This document shows positions 9,507 to 63,723 of a stretch of 64,000 nucleotides of DNA, one piece after another (position 1 is the stretch's first letter; each line of letters starts with the position of its first letter). The translations under genes were made by a program, and so were the position numbers. The notes under the pieces are model-generated. The model saw only the letters and a list, made by a program, of their open reading frames with translations. It ran no database searches and was not told the DNA's origin. The stretch is taken from NCBI GenBank assembly GCA_964464375.1, contig CAYXFU010000005.1, positions 3,495 to 67,494 of the forward strand, written 5' to 3'. Source of the DNA: an uncultured Hyphomicrobiales bacterium (GTDB lineage: Bacteria; Bacteroidota; Ignavibacteria; Kapaibacteriales; UBA2268).

Positions 9507-10676
9507 ATGACTGAAATTGAACGTAAAAACTTACGACTAATAATAGAGAATCTTAAAAATTTGACAAATTCCAGGAATGATTTAGAAACCATTTTGTTTA
9601 TTCCCTTAGGTAAATCTATTAAGCAGGAGGACAAGGAAATATATAGTGATTTATTCGACACTTATAACCGATTTCTTGAGAAACATGCACAGGCACAATC
9701 ATATATAAAATCTCTTGCTAAGGGAGATCTGAATGCTGTGCCACCATCAAAAAATCTTCTGGCTTCTCCCTTCAAGAATCTTCATGCAAATTTGAATCAT
9801 CTTGTTTGGCAGACAAAGCAAGTAGCTACCGGTGATTTGAACCAGAGAATGGATTTTATGGGAGAGTTTTCTAAATCATTTAATATCCTTATTAGTTCAT
9901 TGAAAGAGAAACAAAAGATAGAAGAAGAGTTAAGAGTTAATCAGCAGGACCTACAAGATTCAAATGTAACAAAAGATAGATTTCTATCCATTATTGCACA
10001 TGACTTGAGAAATCCAATCGGTGCGGTAAAAAATGCTCTTGATTTCCTGAGGGATCATCCGGAAATGCTTAGTGATTCTGACACTCCCGATTTTATTGTT
10101 GAATTAGCCGAAACATCAAAAACAGCTTATGATTTGTTGGAAAATCTGCTTACCTGGTCAAGGTCGCAAAGAGGTATTATTCAGTTCAATCCTGAAGAAA
10201 ATGATTTATATTATCTGATAAAGGAAGTCGTTCCTTTGGTACAGATTAATGCCGATAACAAGAAGATAGCAATCACTTCGAATGTGGAAGAAAATACTTT
10301 GATCGAAGCAGATTATAATATGGTGGCTACCATAATTAGAAATCTGGTAACAAATGCGATAAAGTTTACTAAAGAATCCGGAGAAGTAAAAATAAATGCT
10401 TACCCTGATGAGGCTACTAAGGATAAGAAGGATAAATATTTGGTTATTTCTATTGAAGATAATGGCGTAGGAATTAGCCAGGACAATATTGGGAAATTGT
10501 TTAAAATAGATCAGAATTATACCTCAGAAGGTACTAACAGAGAAAAGGGATCCGGATTAGGTTTAATCCTCTGCACTGAGTTTGTGGACAAACACAGCGG
10601 TAAGATATGGGTTGAAAGTCAATTAAACGTTGGGAGCAAATTCAAATTTACAGTGCCCTTATCAAAAACAGAATAA
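9507..10676 (+). CDS. sensor histidine kinase (soluble, coiled-coil/HAMP-like N-terminus, HisKA + HATPase_c)
   Basis: H-box IIAHDLRNPIGAV, then N (VTNAIKFT), G1 (DNGVGIS) and G2 (GSGLGL) boxes. No TM segment. Strong SD (GAGGTGAG) upstream. Confidence 0.85.
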   Translation: MTEIERKNLRLIIENLKNLTNSRNDLETILFIPLGKSIKQEDKEIYSDLFDTYNRFLEKHAQAQSYIKSLAKGDLNAVPPSKNLLASPFKNLHANLNHLVWQTKQVATGDLNQRMDFMGEFSKSFNILISSLKEKQKIEEELRVNQQDLQDSNVTKDRFLSIIAHDLRNPIGAVKNALDFLRDHPEMLSDSDTPDFIVELAETSKTAYDLLENLLTWSRSQRGIIQFNPEENDLYYLIKEVVPLVQINADNKKIAITSNVEENTLIEADYNMVATIIRNLVTNAIKFTKESGEVKINAYPDEATKDKKDKYLVISIEDNGVGISQDNIGKLFKIDQNYTSEGTNREKGSGLGLILCTEFVDKHSGKIWVESQLNVGSKFKFTVPLSKTE

Positions 10677-13137: not shown

Positions 13138-13295
13138 TATAGATCGATACTTTAATAACTACACTAAAAGTAATGTTCTGTTAGAAATGAAACAATATTC
13201 AAAAGGTTACAAAATTAATAATTATTCTTTCAAAAAAATTACTAGAAATTAATTAAATTTGAAAAATTAAAATTATTATTTATTGCAGACTAATT

Positions 13296-30385: not shown

Positions 30386-31810
30386 ATGAAGTATATTCTT
30401 TTTCTTGTAATAGTAAGCATAGCAATTTCAACCAATAGTTTCGCTCAGAAACTACCCAAAATAAATCCGGCAGTTAAGCCAACGGTTGACAAAATAATCA
30501 AACCAGTGATTAAAGAAATCCAATCCTTAAAAGACAGTGTTTCAAAAAGAATCAAACCCTTAAGATCCCAAGCGGATACTTCTCTTTCGAGTGCTGTTAA
30601 ATCTCCTGAAAACACAAAAAAATTGAATTTGACAAATAAAAAATTAACTAAGTTTCCAGCAGAGATATTAAAATTGTCTGAGCTGGAAGTTCTGATTCTT
30701 TCAAGAAATAATATTACAACTTTTCCTTCCGAAATCAAAGACCTGAAGAAACTCAAAGTTCTGGATTTATCAGAAAACACTCTGGATAGAATTCCACCTG
30801 AAGTTTTTACGATTTTAAGTCTGACTGAACTTATTTTATCAGATAATAATATTTCAAATATTCCTGATGATATTTCTCATTTGATAAATCTTAAGAACAT
30901 TGTGCTGAAACGTAATAAAATAGAAACAATTACTGAGAAATTCTCGGATCTCGTTAACCTTCAGAATATATCATTGGAATTTAATAAATTATCTGCTTTA
31001 CCTGCATCAATCACAAAAATATCTGGTTTGCAGAAACTCAATCTTGCTTCCAACAGTATTCAACAAATACCAGCCAGCATTGTAAATTTAGTCAATCTTA
31101 GGACATTTGTGATTCAGAATAATAAATTAACCCAATTACCCAAAGAAATCGGGAAATTAAAAAAACTTATTGAATTTAGCCTAAATGAAAATCAAATTAC
31201 TATATTGCCAGATGAAATCTCTGAAATGGATGGTTTAAGAAAATTATCAATTCAGAAGAACAATCTTACTGCTATACCGAAAGCTATCTTTGGACTTAAA
31301 AATCTTGAAATTCTATATCTTCACGAAAATAAATTAACTGAAATACCCAAAGATATAGAACAAATGAAGAAATTAAAAGAATTGGGCTTGAGTGCTAATT
31401 CAATTTTAAAAATAAATGCTGATTTGAAATCAATCCTAACACTTCAAAAGTTAAATTTAAGTAAAAACAACTTAAATCAAATCCCTGAAGTAGTTTTTGG
31501 CTTAATTAATCTTACAGAATTAGATTTATCATTCAATCAGTTAACAAAAATTCAAGATAATATTTCAATGCTTAAAAATTTAACTGTATTGAAACTTGAT
31601 CAAAACCAAATAACCGAATTGCCAACATCTATAACACAATTAAATAAATTAAAAACTCTATCACTGACATCCAACAAACTTTCTATTCTTCCTTCTGGAT
31701 TAGAGGCATTAACTACTCTGAAATTGCTAAACATCAAGAATAATGCCTTTACTGACGAATATAAAAGCAAATTAAAAGGATTGTTTAAAGGTACAAGGCT
31801 AAATTTTTAA
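30386..31810 (+). CDS. secreted leucine-rich repeat (LRR) protein, ~17 tandem 23-residue LRR units
   Basis: Signal peptide (SIAISTNSFAQ), then repeats of LxxLxxLxLxxNxLxxLPxxIxx throughout. Confidence 0.8.
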   Translation: MKYILFLVIVSIAISTNSFAQKLPKINPAVKPTVDKIIKPVIKEIQSLKDSVSKRIKPLRSQADTSLSSAVKSPENTKKLNLTNKKLTKFPAEILKLSELEVLILSRNNITTFPSEIKDLKKLKVLDLSENTLDRIPPEVFTILSLTELILSDNNISNIPDDISHLINLKNIVLKRNKIETITEKFSDLVNLQNISLEFNKLSALPASITKISGLQKLNLASNSIQQIPASIVNLVNLRTFVIQNNKLTQLPKEIGKLKKLIEFSLNENQITILPDEISEMDGLRKLSIQKNNLTAIPKAIFGLKNLEILYLHENKLTEIPKDIEQMKKLKELGLSANSILKINADLKSILTLQKLNLSKNNLNQIPEVVFGLINLTELDLSFNQLTKIQDNISMLKNLTVLKLDQNQITELPTSITQLNKLKTLSLTSNKLSILPSGLEALTTLKLLNIKNNAFTDEYKSKLKGLFKGTRLNF

Positions 31811-31839
31811 ATATTAATTTCATATTTTTTGAAACTTTT

Positions 31840-32427
31840 TTGTTTTCATGGTGTTATTGCTTTAGGATGAATAATCTAGACCAATATAACGATAATGAAT
31901 TGTTTGATTTGCTGAATTCTGATAAGAAGACGGCAGAGATGGCGTTTGCCGAGTTGTATTTAAGACATTCACCAAGGATCTATGCGTATTGTAGAAGATT
32001 TCTCGGCAATAAGAATGATGCACAAGATGTTTTCCAGGATACATTTGTCAGATTCGTAGAAAGTTCTAAAAAGCCTAGATTAATGACAAACGTCCCTGCT
32101 TATTTGTTGAAAATTGCTCGTAATTTATGTGTTAACGTTAAAAGACATGAAAAATATCCGGTAACGTTTGAAGACTATATGGTTCCTGATGATCACAATA
32201 ATGATAATGATGAGCTGTTAAAACTTATAAAAATGGCTATTGACATACTTCCTGTAGAATACAAAGATATTTTTATTCTTAGGGAATATGATGGACTTAC
32301 TTACACAGAAATAGCAGAAGTTACAAACACTACTTTGGCGGCGGTTAAGATTAAATTATTCAGAGCTAAACAGAAGGTACGTGAAATATTATCTCCTTAT
32401 TTATCTGAATTAAATAAATATTTATAG
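31840..32427 (+). CDS. RNA polymerase sigma-70 factor, ECF subfamily (cassette 2; possible real start 31867)
   Basis: DVFQDTFVRFVES, IARNLCVNVKRH, C-terminal HTH LTYTEIAEVTNTTLAAVKIKLFRA. Paralogous to 12571-13137. Confidence 0.85.
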   Translation: MFSWCYCFRMNNLDQYNDNELFDLLNSDKKTAEMAFAELYLRHSPRIYAYCRRFLGNKNDAQDVFQDTFVRFVESSKKPRLMTNVPAYLLKIARNLCVNVKRHEKYPVTFEDYMVPDDHNNDNDELLKLIKMAIDILPVEYKDIFILREYDGLTYTEIAEVTNTTLAAVKIKLFRAKQKVREILSPYLSELNKYL

Positions 32428-32456
32428 AAAATTGTTAAACTAAATATAAAATTAAA

Positions 32457-33662
32457 ATGAACAATTTAACAGGGAATAATTCATCCGAAATGCTCCATCT
32501 TCTTCTTGACGGAGAATTGGCTCAGGTTCAGGAAGTACCATTATTTTCTGCACTTGCCGCGAATGAGAATCTTCGGGGAGAGATGAAGGATTTAATATCA
32601 ATACGCAATACGGTTCATAGAGATGATGAGGCTTTCGTCCCACCATTTGCAGCAACCGCAGCAGTATTCCAAAGTACAGGATTTTCTCTGCCAATGGCAG
32701 GTACAGCTTTATCGGCAGGAACAGCTGGCGGAGGATTTTACGGTTTTTTGAAGTCTGTATGGATCCCTATTCTAGTCGCAGGTATGTCTTCATTAATAAC
32801 TTACTACATTGTTTCTGGTAACTATAACGATCAAATAGCATCGATGAAATCAGTTAGTCAGAAAAGTACTGTTTCAAATAATTCTCAATCAAACGCAGGC
32901 TTTGGAGAAAATTTGATAAATAATCAAGCTCCGGCACCTAAGGTTATTATTAAATATGTAAAAGTTCCGACTATCACTTCAAGTGAATCAACCGTTTCTA
33001 AAGCAGAAGCATTACCAACTGTTGAACCTGTTGATGAAAAGATATCAAGTACAAGCATTCATTATCAAAATATCTCTCCAATTCGCTCTAATTCAATGCT
33101 GAGTACACCTTTCAGACCGACAAGTTCATCTTATGAGCCAATGTATGCCACCCTGAACATTCACCCTAAAGAGTATATGTTTATTGTGAGAGGATTGACG
33201 GGAGTCACTATGCCATCTGTTAACGCATCTACACCAGCTGGTTCTGGATTAACAAATATATCTCTGGGTTTTTATTTCCTTTCACCATATAGCAATATCC
33301 ATATTGGTGTAGAAGGTGGGCAGGAACCATTTTCTCAGAATTTTGTTAATACTGAGGGTAGCAGGAAATTCCGTTATGAACAACGTCCTAATGTTGTTTT
33401 TGGAGGAGTAGGAGCAATTGGTAAATTAAATTCAAAAATAGATTTCTTATATGATGCCCAACCTTTTGGTCAATTATTTATTGGTGGCTCCGAATTGGGA
33501 CCTTTAGGGAAAATGATGGCAGGTCTCACATGGGGTTCTGATTCATGGGGTTTGAATGCTTTCTTAGCATTGGAAGGCTCATTCCTGGCATATCAAAATC
33601 AGAGTATATGGTACTCATCCCAGAAGATGGGTATCACTTATGGTTTTTCTGTACAATTTTAA
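32457..33662 (+). CDS. putative anti-sigma factor with single TM and C-terminal outer-membrane beta-barrel-like domain (paralog of 11362-12558)
   Basis: N-terminal LHLLLDGELAQVQEVPLF..LRGEMKDLISI parallels its paralog. TM VWIPILVAGMSSLITYYIV, S/T/P-rich linker, C-terminal beta-pattern ending GITYGFSVQF. Confidence 0.65.
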   Translation: MNNLTGNNSSEMLHLLLDGELAQVQEVPLFSALAANENLRGEMKDLISIRNTVHRDDEAFVPPFAATAAVFQSTGFSLPMAGTALSAGTAGGGFYGFLKSVWIPILVAGMSSLITYYIVSGNYNDQIASMKSVSQKSTVSNNSQSNAGFGENLINNQAPAPKVIIKYVKVPTITSSESTVSKAEALPTVEPVDEKISSTSIHYQNISPIRSNSMLSTPFRPTSSSYEPMYATLNIHPKEYMFIVRGLTGVTMPSVNASTPAGSGLTNISLGFYFLSPYSNIHIGVEGGQEPFSQNFVNTEGSRKFRYEQRPNVVFGGVGAIGKLNSKIDFLYDAQPFGQLFIGGSELGPLGKMMAGLTWGSDSWGLNAFLALEGSFLAYQNQSIWYSSQKMGITYGFSVQF

Positions 33663-33673
33663 GGTTAAAAACG

Positions 33674-34408
33674 ATGAAAATATTAATTAGGTTAAATATT
33701 ATTTTTGCAGCACTTGCTTTGTTTATATCAGCATGTACTTCGCCGATGGATGTTAATACTCCACGAGATCAAAAGCTAATACCCGGAGAAAATTACAAAA
33801 TTTCCGGAAATATTTCTGAGATGAGTTTTGAGGAAAATGGTGTGCAATGCTCATTCAATTTAGGTGAGAATACATTTGAGATAGACACTACAGTTAATCC
33901 AGCAAGAATTTGGCTAAGAGTTAAATTAACCGATAATGAAAATTTTAATGCTACACAAAGTAGAATTTCGGTGAAAAGGATTGACATCAGATTGGATTCG
34001 TTGGATATTTCTAGCCCTTACACATTCACCGGCAGAAAAATCGGGGATAATTTTGCCATTATTGATATCGAACGTGGATTAAATACTTCTAAGGATACTT
34101 CAGTATATTTCGGGCAGGATTTAAATACTGCAGAAGTCACTTTCAATTATAATAAATCAAAAGGTGAACTTTGGGCTTATACATTATCCAAGGTTTACGA
34201 GAATAAAATCTGGCTGGAATACCATGATTCTACTTATACTGATTATATTACAGTGACCAGACCTGATACTACCTATGACAATAATGGTAAAATGATTATC
34301 ACTTTAAAAACTGAAAAGATTGCAAAAGAAGTAACTATTAAATTAGAAGAAGAAAAAATGCTTAAAGATTCTTTGTTTTTAACAGGAAAGTTTAAATTTA
34401 AATTTTAA
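33674..34408 (+). CDS. lipoprotein of unknown function (third gene of ECF cassette 2)
   Basis: MKILIRLNIIFAALALFISAC lipobox. Starts 12 nt after the anti-sigma-like stop. The ORF-track start at 33545 overlaps the upstream gene and is unlikely. Confidence 0.6.
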   Translation: MKILIRLNIIFAALALFISACTSPMDVNTPRDQKLIPGENYKISGNISEMSFEENGVQCSFNLGENTFEIDTTVNPARIWLRVKLTDNENFNATQSRISVKRIDIRLDSLDISSPYTFTGRKIGDNFAIIDIERGLNTSKDTSVYFGQDLNTAEVTFNYNKSKGELWAYTLSKVYENKIWLEYHDSTYTDYITVTRPDTTYDNNGKMIITLKTEKIAKEVTIKLEEEKMLKDSLFLTGKFKFKF

Positions 34409-34459: not shown

Positions 34460-37015
34460 ATGAATAAAATGTACCGTTATTTCTTCATTTTTCTTGCTTT
34501 CACATTGCAGTTTGCCATTACTAATGCATTCAATCTCGATGCTCCTCAAAGACTGACAGCAACTACAGGTCAAGATAATCAGGGCTCTTATGTTGATTTA
34601 TCCTGGTATTTCCAGAGTAATAATGATCAACCATATGCCTTTTATATTTACCAAGCGACTAAACAAACCCAGGACAAAAAGGACTTCCAGGTTTTTGGTA
34701 AAGTTAAATTTGACCCAAACACAAATCAATTTACTTACAGACAATATCTACAGACCGGTACTTTTAGTTTCTATGTAACGGCAATTGGTATTGATGGGAA
34801 TAACTTAGTAGAGAGCAACGGTTCTAATATTGTTACAGTTCAGATTGCAAAAGATCCAAACAAACCATTTATACAAATTGTTTCACAACCAAATGTATAT
34901 TCCAAGATTGGTGATAAATATTCTTATCAAATAAAAGCTAAAACAAATCTTGATCCCTCATGCCCATTAGTATATAGGTTGCTCGATGGACCTAAAGATA
35001 TGCAAATAGATGAAACAAATGGTTTAATTACATGGGCTCCCTCAAGTAATGGTTCATTCCCGGTTGCTGTCCAGGTAGGAACAACATGCAAAATTGCTGT
35101 TGATTTTCCTGTTCAAAAATTCATGATTAACGTTGGTGATGTGAATAACGGACCCTATGTAAGATTCGAATCAAAACCTCTACCAACAATTCCTGTTGGT
35201 AAAATGTATGTTTATCAAATTGTTGCAAGCTCTAATGTAAAATGCCCTATTAAATTTGAGTTAATATCAAATACCCCCAATATTAAATTTGATAATGTAA
35301 AGGGTGAACTTTACATTTATTCAGATGTTCCAACAATGATAACCGGTGGCATTAAAGCATATCTCGAATGTGATCCAAAAGTAATGGCATACCAGCAGTT
35401 CGCTATCAAAATTGTTCAGGATCAGCCACAAGAAGATCTTTGTGCAGTTATCAAAGGTAATATTGTTCTCGAGGATGGAACTCTTCCAAGAGAAGGCAAA
35501 GTTATCGCTTGGAGACTTACCGAGAAATCTAATAAAATTCCAGCTTATCCTGGTTACATAAAAGAAGGAAAATTTGAAGTTAATGTTCCGACAGGTGCTT
35601 TCATTCTAGAGTTTGACAGTCCCGTGTTTATGCATGAATACTATCTGGATGCTAATTCAATTGATAAAGCACAGAAAATTGATGTAAAATGTAAAGATGT
35701 TGTTGAAATTGATGTTGCCGTTACAGCTCGTCCAGTTCCAAAAACAAACTCTGTAAGCGGTACAGTTACTTCCATATTGGACAACAGTCCTGTATTCGCA
35801 GTCGTTGAGTTCTATCCTGTTGATCCGAAAAATAATATTAATCAGAAGACTGGTATGGTATTCCAGACAAAAACTGATGCAAATGGAAATTACTCAATTG
35901 AACTGACAGACGATATGACTTATCGTGCTCATTGCAGACCAATGGCTAATATACCATATAAAGATCAATGGTACGATCAGGTAGACAATCCAAACCAGGC
36001 AGATTTGATCTATCCCGATCAACCATTAACCGGAATTGATTTTAAATTAAGTAAAGCAGATTTGATTAAAAACAGTTTTGCAGGCTCAGTTAAAGATGCT
36101 AATGGAGTTTCTGTAAGGTCACGTATTTTAGCTTTGCCTGTCAAAGCAAATCCTAGCAACAATACTAACGCAGGTCAATTTATAACAGAATCTAAGGATG
36201 ATGGTTCATTTATGTTCCAAAATCTTCCTTATGGAAATTATGTTTTACTTTCATTACCCGTTGACAGAAAATTCTTACCAGGATATTACAAATCATCTGA
36301 TTTTGCCACTTTAAAATGGCGTGAAGCAACGCAGATAACTGTTGGCGACAATATGCCGGCTATGATCTACGAAATCAAACACAAGCTGAGAACAGGCTTT
36401 AAAGGTTTGATCAGAATTGATGGAAATATCATCGCCAGCGGAATGGCAAAGAAAAATATAGATATTCCGCAATCAAACGGATCTCCTGTTGAAGATGCTT
36501 TGGTCTATATAATTGATGAGCAGGGTGAAGTCAGCGATTTCGCTTTGACTGATGCTGCAGGTTACTTCGCAATGTCTGAAGTATCTGAAGGTAATTGTAA
36601 ACTATTTGTTGATAAAGTTGGATTCAATACTTTCGAAAAATCATTAACAAATGATTATACCAAGAGCTTCTCATCAAATGTTGATGTAGTCTTAGAACTT
36701 GAAGTAGCCGGAGTTGAAGAAGAACAAGTTGTTTCAAATCTAACCATTTATCCTAATCCTACACAAAATGTAGCAAATATTATTATATCTGGGTATGTAT
36801 ATGCGTCAACTCAAGCAGTTGTAAGAGTAGTTGATGTTATGGGGAATATAATATTAAGTAAAGATGTAAATTTAGAATTTTTAAGTGCAGAAGTCCGTAT
36901 TATGACTTCCACCATGGTTTCATTAGATATTAGCTCATTAGCACACGGAATTTATATAATTGAGGTCATCTCTGGAAACACTAAGACACAAACAAAGCTG
37001 AATGTTATAAGATAA
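34460..37015 (+). CDS. large cell-surface protein with cadherin-like/Ig-like and CarboxypepD_reg-like repeats and a T9SS C-terminal sorting domain
   Basis: Signal peptide MNKMYRYFFIFLAFTLQFAITNA. Repeated putative Ig domain units (YSYQIKA...DGPKDMQIDETNGLITWAP; YVYQIVA...). C-terminal T9SS type-A CTD (NLTIYPNPTQNVANIII...GIYIIEVISGNTKTQTKLNVIR). Confidence 0.8.
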   Translation: MNKMYRYFFIFLAFTLQFAITNAFNLDAPQRLTATTGQDNQGSYVDLSWYFQSNNDQPYAFYIYQATKQTQDKKDFQVFGKVKFDPNTNQFTYRQYLQTGTFSFYVTAIGIDGNNLVESNGSNIVTVQIAKDPNKPFIQIVSQPNVYSKIGDKYSYQIKAKTNLDPSCPLVYRLLDGPKDMQIDETNGLITWAPSSNGSFPVAVQVGTTCKIAVDFPVQKFMINVGDVNNGPYVRFESKPLPTIPVGKMYVYQIVASSNVKCPIKFELISNTPNIKFDNVKGELYIYSDVPTMITGGIKAYLECDPKVMAYQQFAIKIVQDQPQEDLCAVIKGNIVLEDGTLPREGKVIAWRLTEKSNKIPAYPGYIKEGKFEVNVPTGAFILEFDSPVFMHEYYLDANSIDKAQKIDVKCKDVVEIDVAVTARPVPKTNSVSGTVTSILDNSPVFAVVEFYPVDPKNNINQKTGMVFQTKTDANGNYSIELTDDMTYRAHCRPMANIPYKDQWYDQVDNPNQADLIYPDQPLTGIDFKLSKADLIKNSFAGSVKDANGVSVRSRILALPVKANPSNNTNAGQFITESKDDGSFMFQNLPYGNYVLLSLPVDRKFLPGYYKSSDFATLKWREATQITVGDNMPAMIYEIKHKLRTGFKGLIRIDGNIIASGMAKKNIDIPQSNGSPVEDALVYIIDEQGEVSDFALTDAAGYFAMSEVSEGNCKLFVDKVGFNTFEKSLTNDYTKSFSSNVDVVLELEVAGVEEEQVVSNLTIYPNPTQNVANIIISGYVYASTQAVVRVVDVMGNIILSKDVNLEFLSAEVRIMTSTMVSLDISSLAHGIYIIEVISGNTKTQTKLNVIR

Positions 37016-37285: not shown

Positions 37286-38236
37286 TTAATCTTCCCAGTT
37301 GATTCTTGTTTGATGAAGAAGCTGTGCTATCTTCTTGGCATCTTCCGGGGAGAAATTGTTTTTACCCAATTCTAAACTGTCTAAATGACCTAGATTTCTT
37401 ATAGAATCAGGTAAATTGGTTAGCTCATTACAACTGAGATCTAATTCCTCTAACTTTGTAAGATTGCCAATTGAATCAGGAATAACAGAAATTTCATTTT
37501 CGTGAATGAAAAATTTCTCAAGATTGACTAACTCACCAATACTATCCGGAATTTCGGTTAGGATATTCTGGAATAATCTCAATTTGGTGAGACCTTTCAT
37601 TTTACCGATTGATTCAGGAATCAAACTTAAATTATTTGTTTGTGCTTCGAGTTTTTCTAAACTTGTTAGGTTACAAATACTAGTGGGGAGTACCGATAGA
37701 TGATTGCTAGAAATTCTCAATTTAATAAGATTTGCAAGATTACCTATTGAATCAGGCAACGATGTTAGTTCATTGTCATTGAGAACAAGAATTTTGAGAT
37801 TGACCAACTTCCCAATACTACCGGACAAAGAAGTAAGTTTATTATGATTTAGACTCAAATCTACAAGATTACCCAATTTACCAATTGAATCAGGAACAGC
37901 TGATATTTCATTCCAGCTCAATACAAGGACTTTGAGATCAGAAAGTTCAGTAATTTCCTCTGGAAAATCAGTAAAGTTGTTACCACTAAGTTCAAGCTTT
38001 CTAAGTTTTGAGAGCTTTGAGATATGAGCTGGCACAGAACTAAGCTTATTATTGAGAAGATTCAATTCCAGTAGGTTTGAGAATTCAAACACTTGTTCAG
38101 GAATTTCAGTTAATTTTTTTAAATGTAAATCAAGTCGTAATACTTTTTGTGGATTCAGAAGTGCTTTGTCGATGGAATAGTATGTGTTTTCAGGAGCGAT
38201 AGCTCCTGATGGTTCTACAGGCAACTCGGTGTTCAT
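37286..38236 (-). CDS. leaderless (predicted cytoplasmic) leucine-rich repeat protein, ~11 LRR units
   Basis: No signal peptide (MNTELPVEPSGAIAPEN...). Repeats LxxLxxLxLxxNxLTxLPxSIGx. Non-LRR C-terminal cap NNFSPEDAKKIAQLLHQTRINWED. Confidence 0.8.
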   Translation of the reverse strand: MNTELPVEPSGAIAPENTYYSIDKALLNPQKVLRLDLHLKKLTEIPEQVFEFSNLLELNLLNNKLSSVPAHISKLSKLRKLELSGNNFTDFPEEITELSDLKVLVLSWNEISAVPDSIGKLGNLVDLSLNHNKLTSLSGSIGKLVNLKILVLNDNELTSLPDSIGNLANLIKLRISSNHLSVLPTSICNLTSLEKLEAQTNNLSLIPESIGKMKGLTKLRLFQNILTEIPDSIGELVNLEKFFIHENEISVIPDSIGNLTKLEELDLSCNELTNLPDSIRNLGHLDSLELGKNNFSPEDAKKIAQLLHQTRINWED

Positions 38237-38417: not shown

Positions 38418-40430
38418 ATGAAATTGATTTTTAACTTATTTATTTTTGTTCTTATTCATTGTCTATTCAATGAATCAACAGCTAAAATAGGCGATAAAAC
38501 TATTCTACCAATGTCAGTTGATATATCTTCACCAACTTTGCATCTGAATCAGGCATTTGATGTAATAAATTATTCTGCAGATATTGATTTGAGAAAAGCA
38601 CCATCAACTGAAATGACCGGAATCTCAAGAATAAAAGTATTCTGGAAGGATAATCCTGAAGTTAACTTATTTTATTTTCATTTGAGAAGCTTAATAGTTG
38701 ACTCCGTTTTTTATAATGGTTTTAAGGTTTCCACATCTGCCATTGAAACACCGGTTTCACCAATTTTTCATTATAGTATGGAGCCACCGCCAGGTTCACC
38801 ACAGGATACTGCAGTTATTAGTGTTTATTATCATGGCAATATGACAGCCGCTAATGGAGATAGTTTTGGAGGAGTTTTCTCTCAGGATAGTATTCTTTAT
38901 TCTATCGGTGTAGGTCTTCGCAATAACTACGTATCAGCAACCGAACATTGGCTTGCCTGCTACGATCATCCGTCAGACAAGGCTACTCTCGATTTTAGAT
39001 TCATCACTGATAATGGATTTGTTGTTGCTTCCAACGGATTACTTAAACTAGAGAAAACAACAATAGATAGTAAAGATTATGATGTATACCATTGGAAATC
39101 GGATATACAGACTGCGACATACTTAATGACATTTGCTTGCGGTAAATTTAAGGCTGTGAATTTTACCGGTTTTTACTATCCTATAGTTGTTTATTGCAGA
39201 CCTGGTGATACAAATGCTGTAAAATATACATTTCAAAAAGTACCAGAGATGGTAACTGCATTCCAGAACAGATTTGGAAAGTATTTATTCGAAAAAGTAG
39301 GATATGTTTTAACTCCAATGACCGGTGGAGCAATGGAGCATCAAACAATGATTACCATGCCCGAGCTTGAAATTAGAAAACTATTCAAATCAAAAGATAC
39401 AGTTAATATTACAGCGGCTCACGAGTTATCTCATGGTTGGTTTGGTAATTCTGTAACTCCATATGATTTCCGCGATGCCTGGCTGAATGAAGGCTTTGCG
39501 AAATTTGCTGAAACAACATGGCTTGAGGAAGTGAATGGGTATAATAGCTATCTGACTGGAATCACGAAAGCTATTAATAATTATATAATGACTGATATGT
39601 CTAATGAAGGTACATTTCCTTTATATGATTTTCCACATAATGCTCCATCTTCGAACTATCCATTTACAATATACGATAAAGGATGTGTAGTAACAGCAAT
39701 GCTTAGGTATTACCTTGGAGACGATGAATTCTATTCTGCAATGATGAATTACCTCGATTATTACGCATTTCGTAATAGTACCACTGATTCATTAGAGAAA
39801 TATTTGGAGGAATTCACCGGACAAAATCTTAGCTGGTTCTTTGATCAATGGGTCTATAAGAAGGGTTTTCCTATTATTGATGTGCAGATTTACAAAAGTC
39901 AATCCCAAGTAAATGGATTATTCAAAGCAGAAATAAAAATTACCCAGGTTCAGCCCGGTGATTATGGAGTATATACTAATCTTCCTGTGGAGATAACTTT
40001 CAATCCAGTTAATGGTGCAGCCAAAAGTGTTATATATAATATGACAAATAAAGAGCAAACATTTTATTCAGATTCTCTACCAGATTTTATTTCAGTTTTA
40101 GTAAACAAAGGTCCTACCGTCAGGACTTTAATAAAGTTGAAAAATCTGACTACTTCTTTGCATGAAAAAGAAGATACAGCTGAGGAAATTAATTTTTATC
40201 CAAATCCTGTAACAAACATAATAAATCTGCTTATTAAGGGTATATCTCATAATCTGAATTATTCGATTGTAAATCTTGACGGTACAGAGTTGTTAAAAGG
40301 CACAATAGAAGCCGATGATAGCGGTACCATCACTAAAAAGTTTATCGTTGAAGATTTTGCTGTTGGTAATTATTATCTAAAATTAGAAGGTAATAATTTC
40401 TTTAGAATTTTAAATTTTATTAAGTTGTAA
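38418..40430 (+). CDS. M1-family (gluzincin) aminopeptidase with T9SS C-terminal sorting domain
   Basis: Signal peptide, GAMEH (GAMEN variant), HELSHGWFGNSVT...WLNEGFAKF (HExxH-x18-E), and C-terminal T9SS CTD (INFYPNPVTNIINLLIKG...YYLKLEGNNFFRILNFIKL). Confidence 0.85.
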   Translation: MKLIFNLFIFVLIHCLFNESTAKIGDKTILPMSVDISSPTLHLNQAFDVINYSADIDLRKAPSTEMTGISRIKVFWKDNPEVNLFYFHLRSLIVDSVFYNGFKVSTSAIETPVSPIFHYSMEPPPGSPQDTAVISVYYHGNMTAANGDSFGGVFSQDSILYSIGVGLRNNYVSATEHWLACYDHPSDKATLDFRFITDNGFVVASNGLLKLEKTTIDSKDYDVYHWKSDIQTATYLMTFACGKFKAVNFTGFYYPIVVYCRPGDTNAVKYTFQKVPEMVTAFQNRFGKYLFEKVGYVLTPMTGGAMEHQTMITMPELEIRKLFKSKDTVNITAAHELSHGWFGNSVTPYDFRDAWLNEGFAKFAETTWLEEVNGYNSYLTGITKAINNYIMTDMSNEGTFPLYDFPHNAPSSNYPFTIYDKGCVVTAMLRYYLGDDEFYSAMMNYLDYYAFRNSTTDSLEKYLEEFTGQNLSWFFDQWVYKKGFPIIDVQIYKSQSQVNGLFKAEIKITQVQPGDYGVYTNLPVEITFNPVNGAAKSVIYNMTNKEQTFYSDSLPDFISVLVNKGPTVRTLIKLKNLTTSLHEKEDTAEEINFYPNPVTNIINLLIKGISHNLNYSIVNLDGTELLKGTIEADDSGTITKKFIVEDFAVGNYYLKLEGNNFFRILNFIKL

Positions 40431-62025: not shown

Positions 62026-62433
62026 TAATTAATCTGTTTCGTAATAAAATGAATTACAAAAATATGAAATGATACTATATTAAAATAATATAAATTTAAA
62101 GTTTCTTTTCGATCGTGAGCTTCACATTTTAATTCATCAGTGAAAATCGAAATATATTAGCTAAAGATAATGCAAAGGCAATTCTATTCTTCTTTCTATC
62201 AATTTGTAATTGGTGCAATTTTACAATAATCAAATCATAAAATGATAAAATTCATTTAGTCAGAATATTTCTTATCGATTAATAAAATTTTCGTTTATTT
62301 TTGTAATCTTATTGGTCGAATATATTTAATCATTTGCAAGAATTTTTGAAACTTATTCTTCGATTGGTCGTTATTTCATATACAATCCATTTATAATTTT
62401 TTAATAATTTGTTTAACAAATTTATAAAACACT

Positions 62434-63723
62434 ATGCTAAAGAAATTAATTTTTATTCTAATGTTTTCCCTGCCATTGGCCGTATTTTCTCAGGAAGAAA
62501 TTTATCTTGCGAAAGCTCAACAAGCATTGAACAAAAAGAACTATACAGAAGCAATTAGTTTTTACTCTCAGGCTATTTCAGAGAATGACAAGAATCCGGA
62601 ATCATTCTACAACAGAGGTTTAGCCTATATGTTTATTCAAAGATTTGATGATGCTTTATCAGACTTTAATAGTGTTATCAAATTGGATACTACAGTAGTT
62701 GATGCTTTTAACAACCGTGGGTATCTTTTCTATCTTAATAGTCAATACGATTTTGCTTTGGATGATTTCAATAAGGCTATAAGTTTAGACAGTAAATTTA
62801 CAGAAGCTTATATCAATCGTGGTTCCAATTACATTGATATGAAAAAGTATAATGAAGCAATCACCGATCTCATCAAAGCTCAGTCCTTCGACAAAAAGAA
62901 TCCTTCGATTAATCTTGAACTTGGTCGTGCTTATTATAAGAAAAAGGAATATGAAAAAGCAATAGATAACTATTCAAAATCTATAAAAAAAGGTTTGAAG
63001 AACTCTAAAATTTATTATAATCGTGGAAATGCTTACTATAATTTAAAAGATTACAAGAATGCTATTAAAGACTATTCATTTGGAATCAAACTCGATTCTA
63101 CTGATGCCGAATGTCTGAATAACCGAGCGATTGCCTACGACAAAATTGGAGACACTGTGTCAGCTGAAAATGACAGGAAAAGATTAGGTACTTTGTCCGG
63201 GAATAGTGAAATGTTTGTTCCTTATGAAACGATTAAATACATACCTTTGAAGGATTCTACAGGAAGAATCAATTTTTCAATTCCATCTTCATGGAAAATG
63301 CATGAACTACAAACTGAAAAAGTATCTGAATTGATTGTTTCTCCGGAGCCTTTAGCACTTTTCACATCACCATTTAATGTTGGTGTGAGAATGTCATTGA
63401 ATTCGAATATGTTTAGTCAATATCAGATTGAGAATAAGGATTCTTTGCTTGAGTTTTGGCATGGAAGCATTCTACAGAATTCAAAAAATTACTTCTCATA
63501 TAATATTATGTCCGAGAAAGTACTTGTCAAAGGACAATACAAGGGCAGATTAAATAAAGTTTTGGTTCAATTTGATAAAGATGGTTATAAATATATCTTT
63601 TATGAATTCGGATTGGCAAAGGAAAATGAATTATTTTTTGCTTTTTTCCAGGTACCAGATAAGCAATACGAATACTTCGCCCCAATTTTTGAAAAAATTA
63701 TTGATTCAATTAATATAAACTAG
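62434..63723 (+). CDS. secreted tetratricopeptide-repeat (TPR) protein
   Basis: Signal peptide; at least six TPR units (W-LG-Y-A-F-A-P pattern, e.g. AISFYSQAISENDKNPESFYNRGLAYMF). Confidence 0.8.
   Translation: MLKKLIFILMFSLPLAVFSQEEIYLAKAQQALNKKNYTEAISFYSQAISENDKNPESFYNRGLAYMFIQRFDDALSDFNSVIKLDTTVVDAFNNRGYLFYLNSQYDFALDDFNKAISLDSKFTEAYINRGSNYIDMKKYNEAITDLIKAQSFDKKNPSINLELGRAYYKKKEYEKAIDNYSKSIKKGLKNSKIYYNRGNAYYNLKDYKNAIKDYSFGIKLDSTDAECLNNRAIAYDKIGDTVSAENDRKRLGTLSGNSEMFVPYETIKYIPLKDSTGRINFSIPSSWKMHELQTEKVSELIVSPEPLALFTSPFNVGVRMSLNSNMFSQYQIENKDSLLEFWHGSILQNSKNYFSYNIMSEKVLVKGQYKGRLNKVLVQFDKDGYKYIFYEFGLAKENELFFAFFQVPDKQYEYFAPIFEKIIDSININ

Follow-up and report, generated by a model that had tools for sequence, protein, structure and literature searches.

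Two paralogous ECF sigma factor cassettes with predicted barrel-ended anti-sigma factors, probably Dma-type envelope signalling units, in an Ignavibacteria-like genome

Two three-gene cassettes, each consisting of genes for an ECF sigma factor, a barrel anti-sigma protein of about 400 aa and a lipoprotein, lie on opposite strands of the analyzed DNA (64,000 nt, hereafter the window; Table 1). Cassette B covers 31867-34408 on the plus strand and cassette A covers 13137-10684 on the minus strand, as the first-pass annotation had indicated, and a search of the whole window found neither a third copy nor any other ECF sigma gene. Two gene starts were revised, and independent gene calls on identical contigs concur with both revisions: sigma factor B most likely starts at ATG 31867 instead of TTG 31840, and the T9SS-sorted protein behind cassette B most likely starts at 34460 and has 851 aa instead of 868. 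The spacing, initially described as identical in the two cassettes, is different (from gene coordinates, the sigma/anti-sigma and anti-sigma/lipoprotein gaps are 29 nt and 11 nt in B, and 12 nt and 0 nt in A).

Table 1. Coordinates of the cassette genes, predicted protein regions and candidate promoters in the window.
Feature	Position	Strand	Details
Putative autoregulated ECF-type promoter, cassette B	31830..31858	+	TGAAAC-N17-GTTATT
ECF sigma factor B, 186 aa	31867..32427	+	Pfam Sigma70_r2 (E 6e-14), Sigma70_r4_2 (E 7e-15)
Dma-like anti-sigma factor B, 401 aa	32457..33662	+	
Anti-sigma B residues 1-60, helical predicted sigma-binding domain	32457-32636	+	
Anti-sigma B residues 101-121, transmembrane helix	32757-32819	+	
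Anti-sigma B residues 122-239, S/T/P/N-rich disordered tether	32820-33173	+	
Anti-sigma B residues 240-401, predicted 8-stranded outer-membrane beta-barrel	33174-33659	+	
Lipoprotein B, 244 aa	33674..34408	+	Lipobox ...ISAC
T9SS-sorted surface protein, 851 aa	34460..37015	+	Pfam He_PIG, CarboxypepD_reg, Por_Secre_tail
Candidate promoter before the sigma A gene, a conserved block with TGTAAC	13183..13211	-	Shared by the window and locus L034
ECF sigma factor A, 188 aa	12571..13137	-	Pfam r2 and r4_2; 36% identical to sigma factor B
Dma-like anti-sigma factor A, 398 aa	11362..12558	-	Layout in four parts like B; C-terminus ...GIIYGLGFNF
Lipoprotein A, 225 aa	10684..11361	-	...LYSC-KDSLGYDPNV; remote homologue of lipoprotein B

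The earlier assignment of both sigma proteins to the ECF type was borne out by Pfam, which found Sigma70_r2 and Sigma70_r4_2 in each. They contain regions 2 and 4 only and match TIGR02937 (87.3 and 65.8 bits for the two proteins, cut-off 42.9, NCBIfam), as is characteristic of ECF (sigma-70 group 4) factors. This superfamily model is the only sigma factor model scoring above its NCBIfam cut-off, and the best specific models both remained below threshold (sigma_PG0214, 101 bits vs. 130; Sig70_bacteroi1, 99.5 bits vs. 126.4).

Comparison at the protein level revealed that the cassettes are true paralogues of one dedicated sigma/barrel-anti-sigma/lipoprotein circuit, as had been proposed. The sigma pair shows 36% identity (E 2e-41), and the anti-sigma pair shows 26% identity from end to end (401 vs. 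398 aa, E 4e-16), with the two motifs noted before, an N-terminal LxGxL...LRxExK and a C-terminal ...YG(F/L)xxxF, both lying inside the alignment. A lipobox cysteine is present in both third-gene products, which confirms them as lipoproteins. These two were not related by BLASTP (best E 1.6) and were only marginally related by profile-to-sequence hhalign (P 5e-4), whereas profile-profile hhalign aligned them over 164 columns (probability 89.5%, E 2e-6); their probable kinship is thus convincing by the profile-profile comparison only. In lipoprotein B the lipobox is followed by the conserved peptide C-x-S-P-x-D-[VIL]-[DN]; the body is all-beta and the C-terminal residue is aromatic. The A-type triad is preserved in another locus (L034), and the pair of barrel protein and lipoprotein is retained in L032. 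No Pfam family was found for either window lipoprotein at E<=0.1, and the 19 proteins of alignment A2 gave only four chance-level matches to unrelated Pfam families, none of them NigD or DUF4943.

The anti-sigma proteins have the layout of a dual membrane-spanning anti-sigma (Dma) factor. [quoted passage not shown] Hydropathy reaches its maximum at residues 101-119 in anti-sigma B and 97-115 in anti-sigma A, and all 136 family members that were examined have a comparable TM segment. The AF2 model of the 401-aa protein, of low overall confidence (mean pLDDT 54, N-terminal domain about 60), contains helices at 9-55, a helix from 102 to 132 at the place of the TM segment, a region without secondary structure at 133-239 (pLDDT <50 at 120-237) and, at 240-400, a domain of beta structure with pLDDT 70-85. 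Serine, threonine, proline and asparagine together make up 43-46% of the tether, which is about 115 residues long. In the barrel of anti-sigma B, residues 294-309 form a conserved polar hairpin, and the chain ends in ...GITYGFSVQF; a C-terminal phenylalanine is found in 113 of the 136 members. Of the soluble parts, the first 60 residues are the best conserved across the family, with L17, G19, E26, L29, L33, L39 and E42 invariant in alignment A1. Neither window protein has a Pfam or NCBIfam match, and among 110 family relatives RseA_N was matched by 21 (best E 3.9e-5) and zf-HC2 by four. In a PDB sequence search the sole match to the family profile was Geminin, which we rejected as a chance hit and which is no anti-sigma relative.

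The barrel anti-sigma family comprises 1,851 representatives at 50% identity, anti-sigma A matches its profile with 350 bits, and members were found in Ignavibacteria, Kapaibacteria, Melioribacter and Chlorobiota-labelled genomes, including the cultured species Melioribacter roseus (L025). No Pfam model covers the family, and its clusters are named solely 'hypothetical protein'. Adjacency to an ECF sigma gene, another mark of Dma genes, is strict: each of the 28 related loci with upstream DNA, like both window cassettes, has the sigma gene directly before the anti-sigma gene, with a gap of 0-30 nt or an overlap at every locus. Together with the conserved motif before the sigma gene, this supports the original suggestion of a family of dedicated circuits.

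Of 30 loci, 29 carry the motif, TG(T/A)(A/G)AC-N17-GT(T/C), no farther than 90 nt from the sigma ATG, while 500 shuffles gave a chance expectation of 0.15 on average and 2 at most. Its conservation before the sigma gene counts for a putative autoregulation. In cassette B, 8 nt separate the end of the -10-like element from the start codon of the sigma gene, so the mRNA would be nearly leaderless. When the window was scanned with the position weight matrix (PWM), this site ranked first with 18.8 bits. By itself this score is one that shuffled windows can also reach (their maxima average 13.3 and go up to 19.7), and the training set had included this site. The scan gave no further regulon site in the window; a candidate at 62347-62375 upstream of a TPR gene was rejected with 11.9 bits, inside the shuffle range. 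The block upstream of sigma A reached a PWM score of only 7.3, and its -10 region departs from the GTTATT consensus. A scan for sigma-70 promoters and terminators was uninformative.

The gene behind cassette B had been proposed as a regulatory target, together with the flanking LRR genes. Its product has the C-terminal Por_Secre_tail of T9SS type A cargo (PF18962, E 1.7e-9, residues 763-847) and matches TIGR04183 with 24 bits (cut-off 23). A gap of 51 nt separates it from the lipoprotein B gene, and the terminator scan found no terminator there. Cargo homologues occur nearby, downstream of the module, in three diverged loci (L003, L006 and L015). In L006 the motif is found a second time, 32 nt before the lipoprotein ATG, and the cargo homologue follows the lipoprotein gene; in L015 the motif lies 63 nt upstream of the cargo homologue itself. 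These loci speak for the proposal; on the other side, the PWM scan found no ECF-type motif of the cargo gene's own in the window, so that control by the sigma factor, if any, would act through read-through. The gene is missing from L001 and L004. We class it as a facultative fourth gene and regard it as a plausible candidate for the regulon. As for the LRR genes, neither a motif nor other evidence in the window marks them as targets (PWM scan), and the upstream one is merely syntenic.

We consider it likely that each cassette is a Dma-type cell-envelope signalling unit. In such a unit, the anti-sigma protein would use its helical N-terminal domain of about 60 aa to keep the ECF sigma factor inactive at the inner membrane; the chain would pass this membrane once, continue as the disordered tether through the periplasm and end in the barrel, which would enter the outer membrane via its C-terminal aromatic beta-signal. 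A disturbance of the outer membrane or the surface may lead to proteolysis of the tether and then to intramembrane cleavage, and the conserved polar hairpin, predicted to be an external loop of the barrel, is a possible sensing element. The released sigma factor would bind its own promoter, TG(T/A)AAC-N17-GTTATT, and thereby increase transcription of the operon, which would extend to the downstream lipoprotein and, via read-through, to the T9SS-secreted surface protein. The paralogy of the cassettes, the domain layout, the barrel fold, the adjacency of the sigma gene and the conserved promoter motif are results of the present analysis; that the protein binds the sigma factor, spans both membranes and is activated by proteolysis, and what the regulon contains, we infer from Bacteroides Dma1 and Dma2 and from the RseA paradigm.

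The absence of a significant anti-sigma domain match in the window proteins (Pfam, NCBIfam) and of an anti-sigma relative in the PDB sequence search would also fit a different role for the ~400-aa protein, namely that of an outer-membrane protein which retains its signal-anchor uncleaved and is just co-transcribed with the sigma gene as a regulon member, with the true anti-sigma located elsewhere or non-existent. We regard this as highly improbable, given that the helical N-terminal segment is the best-conserved soluble part and, standing before the TM helix, would be cytoplasmic, that RseA_N or zf-HC2 is matched in 25 of 110 relatives, that the sigma gene is adjacent at every locus, and that binding of Das1 has been demonstrated for the N-terminal 40 aa of Dma1 (PMC10927553). 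The protein might instead be a conventional single-membrane anti-sigma, its C-terminal beta-barrel serving as a soluble periplasmic sensor and not as an outer-membrane barrel, which seems improbable to us.

Within the Dma-type reading, two extensions concern the lipoprotein. It could be an obligatory co-sensor that sets the threshold for proteolysis by docking to the barrel or to the conserved loop, like RseB for RseA. The lipoprotein gene directly follows the anti-sigma gene in 13 diverged loci as well as in both cassettes, the peptide straight after the lipid-modified cysteine is unusually conserved, and in L006 the gene has an ECF motif of its own; however, one clade (L022, L026-L031) keeps the sigma/anti-sigma pair without a lipoprotein, and no structural analogue of the lipoprotein was found, so we hold this role to be tentative and somewhat unlikely. 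More speculative, and in our judgement unlikely, is that the external hairpin of the barrel and the dedicated lipoprotein form a sensor of the T9SS-decorated surface which feeds back on the expression of T9SS adhesin-like cargo; such a Dma-type circuit would be tied to type IX secretion and not to vesiculation.

Dma-type anti-sigmas are, to our knowledge, the only proteins reported to join cytoplasm and outer membrane in one chain. A large family of like layout outside Bacteroides would widen the phyletic range of this design; it yields a clean promoter motif for regulon prediction and suggests a conserved lipoprotein partner and T9SS surface proteins as outputs. Because Melioribacter roseus is cultured and carries the module, the question of how one chain is built into two membranes becomes approachable outside Bacteroides. 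If the T9SS-sensor reading were true, Bacteroidota-Chlorobiota would share an ancestral one-polypeptide trans-envelope device that has diversified into lineage-specific pairs of sensor and partner.

The architecture itself, which the first-pass annotation did not recognize, has already been described as the Dma family of Bacteroides (PMC10927553, PMC13088901). By its description, Dma1 starts with a segment that binds the sigma factor and continues with one TM helix, a long disordered stretch through the periplasm and, at the C-terminus, an 8-stranded outer-membrane barrel, the order of parts that is also predicted for the window proteins; its gene likewise adjoins an ECF sigma gene, and an adjacent lipoprotein gene (NigD2, BT_4719), which belongs to the Dma1 regulon, has its counterpart in the lipoprotein gene here (PMC10927553). 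Differences are also evident. Dma1 is annotated as OMP_b-brl_2 (PF13568), while this model matched none of 110 members of the window family and none of 10 distant members, and a few match PF13505 instead. The lipoproteins here have no Pfam match to NigD (NigD_N or NigD_C). Furthermore, Dma proteins were described as paired with ECF21 sigma factors and confined to Bacteroidota (PMC10927553), whereas the host here is Ignavibacteria-like (NCBI phylum Ignavibacteriota). The das2-dma2-BT_1557 operon of B. thetaiotaomicron is likewise a three-gene unit, made up of a sigma factor, a Dma protein and a small protein without known function; the operon strongly induces itself, and its neighbours are co-induced upon removal of the anti-sigma (PMC13088901). 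BT_1557 is a DUF4943 protein, in contrast to the unrelated lipoprotein family without Pfam match here, and the neighbours of the dma2 operon encode a DUF4858 or an enoyl-reductase-like protein where a T9SS-sorted surface protein is encoded here.

Beyond Dma, the cassettes resemble the RseA/sigma-E envelope-stress system (with RseB, DegS and RseP), in which a single-pass anti-sigma carries an N-terminal cytoplasmic sigma-binding domain (compare the weak RseA_N similarity in the relatives here), the sigma promoter is autoregulated and an accessory envelope protein is encoded downstream, an arrangement that is also predicted here. However, the short periplasmic domain of RseA reads unfolded OMP C-termini indirectly via DegS, whereas the anti-sigma here has a predicted outer-membrane barrel of its own. 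The Fec system (FecA/FecR/FecI) likewise signals from the outer membrane to a cytoplasmic ECF sigma factor, as is proposed here. Pfam found no TonB box, Plug or FecR domain in the anti-sigma here. In Fec the task is shared by a TonB-dependent transducer and a separate anti-sigma, FecR, whereas in the cassettes one polypeptide would accomplish it.

Each module component was found in exactly two copies by profile search of all window ORFs, and the same search found no further ECF sigma factor beyond sigma A and sigma B. In gene calls made on identical public contigs, sigma B starts at the ATG at 31867 (186 aa) and the downstream type IX secretion system (T9SS) cargo gene at 34460 (851 aa). The first-pass annotation had described two duplicated cassettes with identical spacing. 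The spacing in fact differs (gaps of 29 and 11 nt in cassette B versus 12 and 0 nt in cassette A), while paralogy was confirmed for the sigma factors (36% identity, E 2e-41) and for the predicted anti-sigmas of 401 and 398 aa, which align over their full length (26% identity, E 4e-16). Lipoproteins A and B showed no similarity by BLASTP; A-type and B-type lipoproteins were linked by profile-profile comparison (89.5%, E 2e-6, 164 columns). The arrangement is retained around lipoprotein A orthologues in other genomes: locus L034 carries a complete A-type triad, and in L032 the barrel protein C-terminus (...NFGVGFNF) overlaps the start of the lipoprotein. The profile match and the retained A-type arrangement together indicate that the entire three-gene unit was duplicated long ago. 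Convergent with cassette A lies a soluble-looking histidine kinase gene (HisKA and HATPase_c, 9507-10676, +) with no receiver domain detected, and the same neighbour is retained in L034. A terminator-like hairpin (33609-33636, +; 11 pairs, then a T-rich run) sits within the last anti-sigma B codons, just 5' of the lipoprotein B start, and could be chance or an attenuator.

Coordinates of the cassette genes and of two promoter motif sites
Feature	Position	Strand	Detail
ECF sigma B	31840/31867-32427	+	ORF listing
Anti-sigma B, 401 aa	32457-33662	+	ORF listing
Lipoprotein B	33674-34408	+	ORF listing
ECF sigma A	13137-12571	-	ORF listing
Anti-sigma A, 398 aa	12558-11362	-	ORF listing
Lipoprotein A	11361-10684	-	ORF listing
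Motif of cassette B	31830-31858	+	ends 8 nt 5' of sigma B ATG
Second ECF-type motif in L006	7454-7482		TGCAAC-N17-GTTATT, 17.9 bits

Both sigma factors contain Sigma70_r2 and r4_2 (Pfam) and in NCBIfam exceed the cut-off for the ECF superfamily model only; the ~400-aa proteins and the lipoproteins of the window had no Pfam or NCBIfam match. In an AlphaFold2 model of the 401-aa protein (11-sequence alignment, mean pLDDT 54), N-terminal helices at 9-55 are followed by a helix from 102 on containing the hydrophobic segment 101-119, a stretch without structure at 133-239 (pLDDT <50) and, at 240-400, a beta domain (pLDDT about 70-85) ending in ...GITYGFSVQF. Eight of the ten DSSP strands of this barrel domain have one uncharged face enriched in hydrophobic residues or Gly. 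The short strands 294-300 (QNFVNTE) and 303-309 (RKFRYEQ) are polar and coincide with the motif conserved most strongly across the family (G-x-E-x-G-x-E-x-F-x-Q...Y-E-Q-x-P); should both barrel termini face the periplasm, a topology that we infer, this hairpin would be an external loop. A TM-like segment near residue 99 is present in all 136 relatives and a C-terminal F in 113 of them. Pfam scanning of 110 relatives matched RseA_N in 21 (best E 3.9e-5), OMP_b-brl (PF13505) in seven, zf-HC2 in four and OMP_b-brl_2 (PF13568) in none. Some relatives, including family members P0004-P0009, carry a ~40-aa insertion after the TM helix, in the membrane-proximal part of the tether, with weak coiled-coil-type Pfam/PDB matches (Geminin, ATG16, tropomyosin), which could be a periplasmic dimerisation segment.

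Exhaustive profile search identified a family with 1,851 representatives when clustered at 50% identity, of which 716 reach E <= 1e-30, and a genome scan returned 29 loci. An ECF sigma gene lies immediately 5' of the barrel protein in all 28 loci with upstream DNA. In 13 loci the next gene encodes a lipoprotein of 190-245 aa that combines a lipobox with the conserved peptide C-x-S-P-x-D-[VIL]-[DN] and has an aromatic residue at its C-terminus; loci L022 and L026-L031, a distant two-gene clade, are without it. The credible-looking labels of the loci are Ignavibacteria, Melioribacter, Kapaibacterium and Chlorobiota, and the nearest locus (L003, 82% identity, syntenic with the window) is from an uncultured Ignavibacteria MAG. 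Ignavibacteria form their own phylum, Ignavibacteriota, inside the Bacteroidota/Chlorobiota group in NCBI taxonomy and a class of Bacteroidota in GTDB. Module-bearing MAG contigs L004, L005, L007, L009, L011 and L018 are labelled 'uncultured Hyphomicrobiales' and L014 'Ectothiorhodospiraceae'; the module in all of them is of the Ignavibacteria type, L004 also shows synteny with the window, and these labels look unreliable.

Alignment of regions 5' of the sigma genes revealed the motif TG(T/A)(A/G)AC-N17-GT(T/C)A(T/A)T in 29 of 30 non-redundant loci (0.15 expected; at most 2 in 500 shuffles), which makes a predicted autoregulatory promoter well supported. This putative promoter follows the usual ECF pattern, in which the -35 element contains AAC and the -10 element GT. 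From the motif start to the ATG the distance is 40-46 nt in AT-rich genomes and 56-77 nt in GC-richer ones, with outliers that include L014 at about 167 nt. The -10-like GTTATT of cassette B falls within 31853-31869, and its tight spacing to the ATG, repeated in AT-rich relatives, points to a sigma mRNA with little or no leader. Cassette A keeps the conserved TGTAAC block and lacks the -10 consensus.

T9SS cargo and LRR genes had been proposed as regulatory targets. A PWM scan of the window found no second credible motif site and none 5' of the T9SS gene; nor was there one before the LRR genes. The second-best match (62347-62375, +; TGAAAC-N17-GTTATT, 11.9 bits), ~59 nt 5' of a TPR-repeat protein gene (62434-63723), may be chance because its score falls within the shuffled-sequence range. 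For the T9SS cargo, the case comes from homologues. The second site in L006 lies in a 230-nt anti-sigma/lipoprotein gap, 32 nt 5' of the lipoprotein ATG, and a homologue of the window's T9SS protein comes after the lipoprotein; in that lineage the two seem to be a separate sigma-dependent unit. In L015, a divergent intergenic region (10287-10478, both strands) holds three ECF motif matches, including one of 16.1 bits 63 nt 5' of a cargo homologue (37% identity, E 6e-127) and an opposite-strand one of 26.5 bits facing the gene of a BNR/Asp-box repeat protein of 419 aa that, judged by eye, ends in what looks like a T9SS sorting tail; this region may represent a small T9SS-cargo regulon. Comparison across these loci hints at T9SS surface proteins as outputs of the module. 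Since cargo homologues occur near the module in some loci and are missing from L001 and L004, the T9SS protein would be a facultative output, though a recurrent one. Its expression in the window would be by read-through over the 51-nt gap 3' of lipoprotein B, where a scan found no terminator. Two LRR genes flank cassette B (30386-31810, +; 37286-38236, -); the former, which ends 20 nt 5' of the sigma B promoter, has syntenic counterparts beside the module in L001, L003 and L004 (37-82% identity), and no evidence points to its regulation by the module. A second T9SS cargo gene near cassette B (38418-40430, +) specifies an M1-family peptidase that carries a C-terminal T9SS sorting domain.

At the level of architecture, we consider it quite probable that this Ignavibacteria-like genome carries two paralogous sigma/anti-sigma/lipoprotein modules of the type of Dma, the dual membrane-spanning anti-sigmas of Bacteroides; from this analogy we infer their signalling steps. 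The anti-sigma family is sizeable and covered by no Pfam model, and the modules would extend the taxonomic range of the Dma-type design, adding a conserved lipoprotein partner and the well-supported autoregulatory motif. Dma1 (BT_4721) shares its four-part layout with the window anti-sigmas; Das1, an ECF21 sigma, is bound by residues 1-40 of Dma1, OMVs were found to contain C-terminal Dma1 fragments and membranes the full-length protein, the adjoining NigD2 lipoprotein gene belongs to its regulon, and the Dma family is confined to Bacteroidota according to its authors (PMC10927553). The dma2 gene lies in the three-gene operon das2-dma2-BT_1557 (DUF4943), and its deletion induces the operon and neighbours (PMC13088901). 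The window cassettes resemble Dma in every architectural feature that could be compared. They differ in that Dma1 is annotated with PF13568, which the window family does not match, and in their third gene, which is unrelated to NigD, the Dma1 partner, or to DUF4943 of the dma2 operon.
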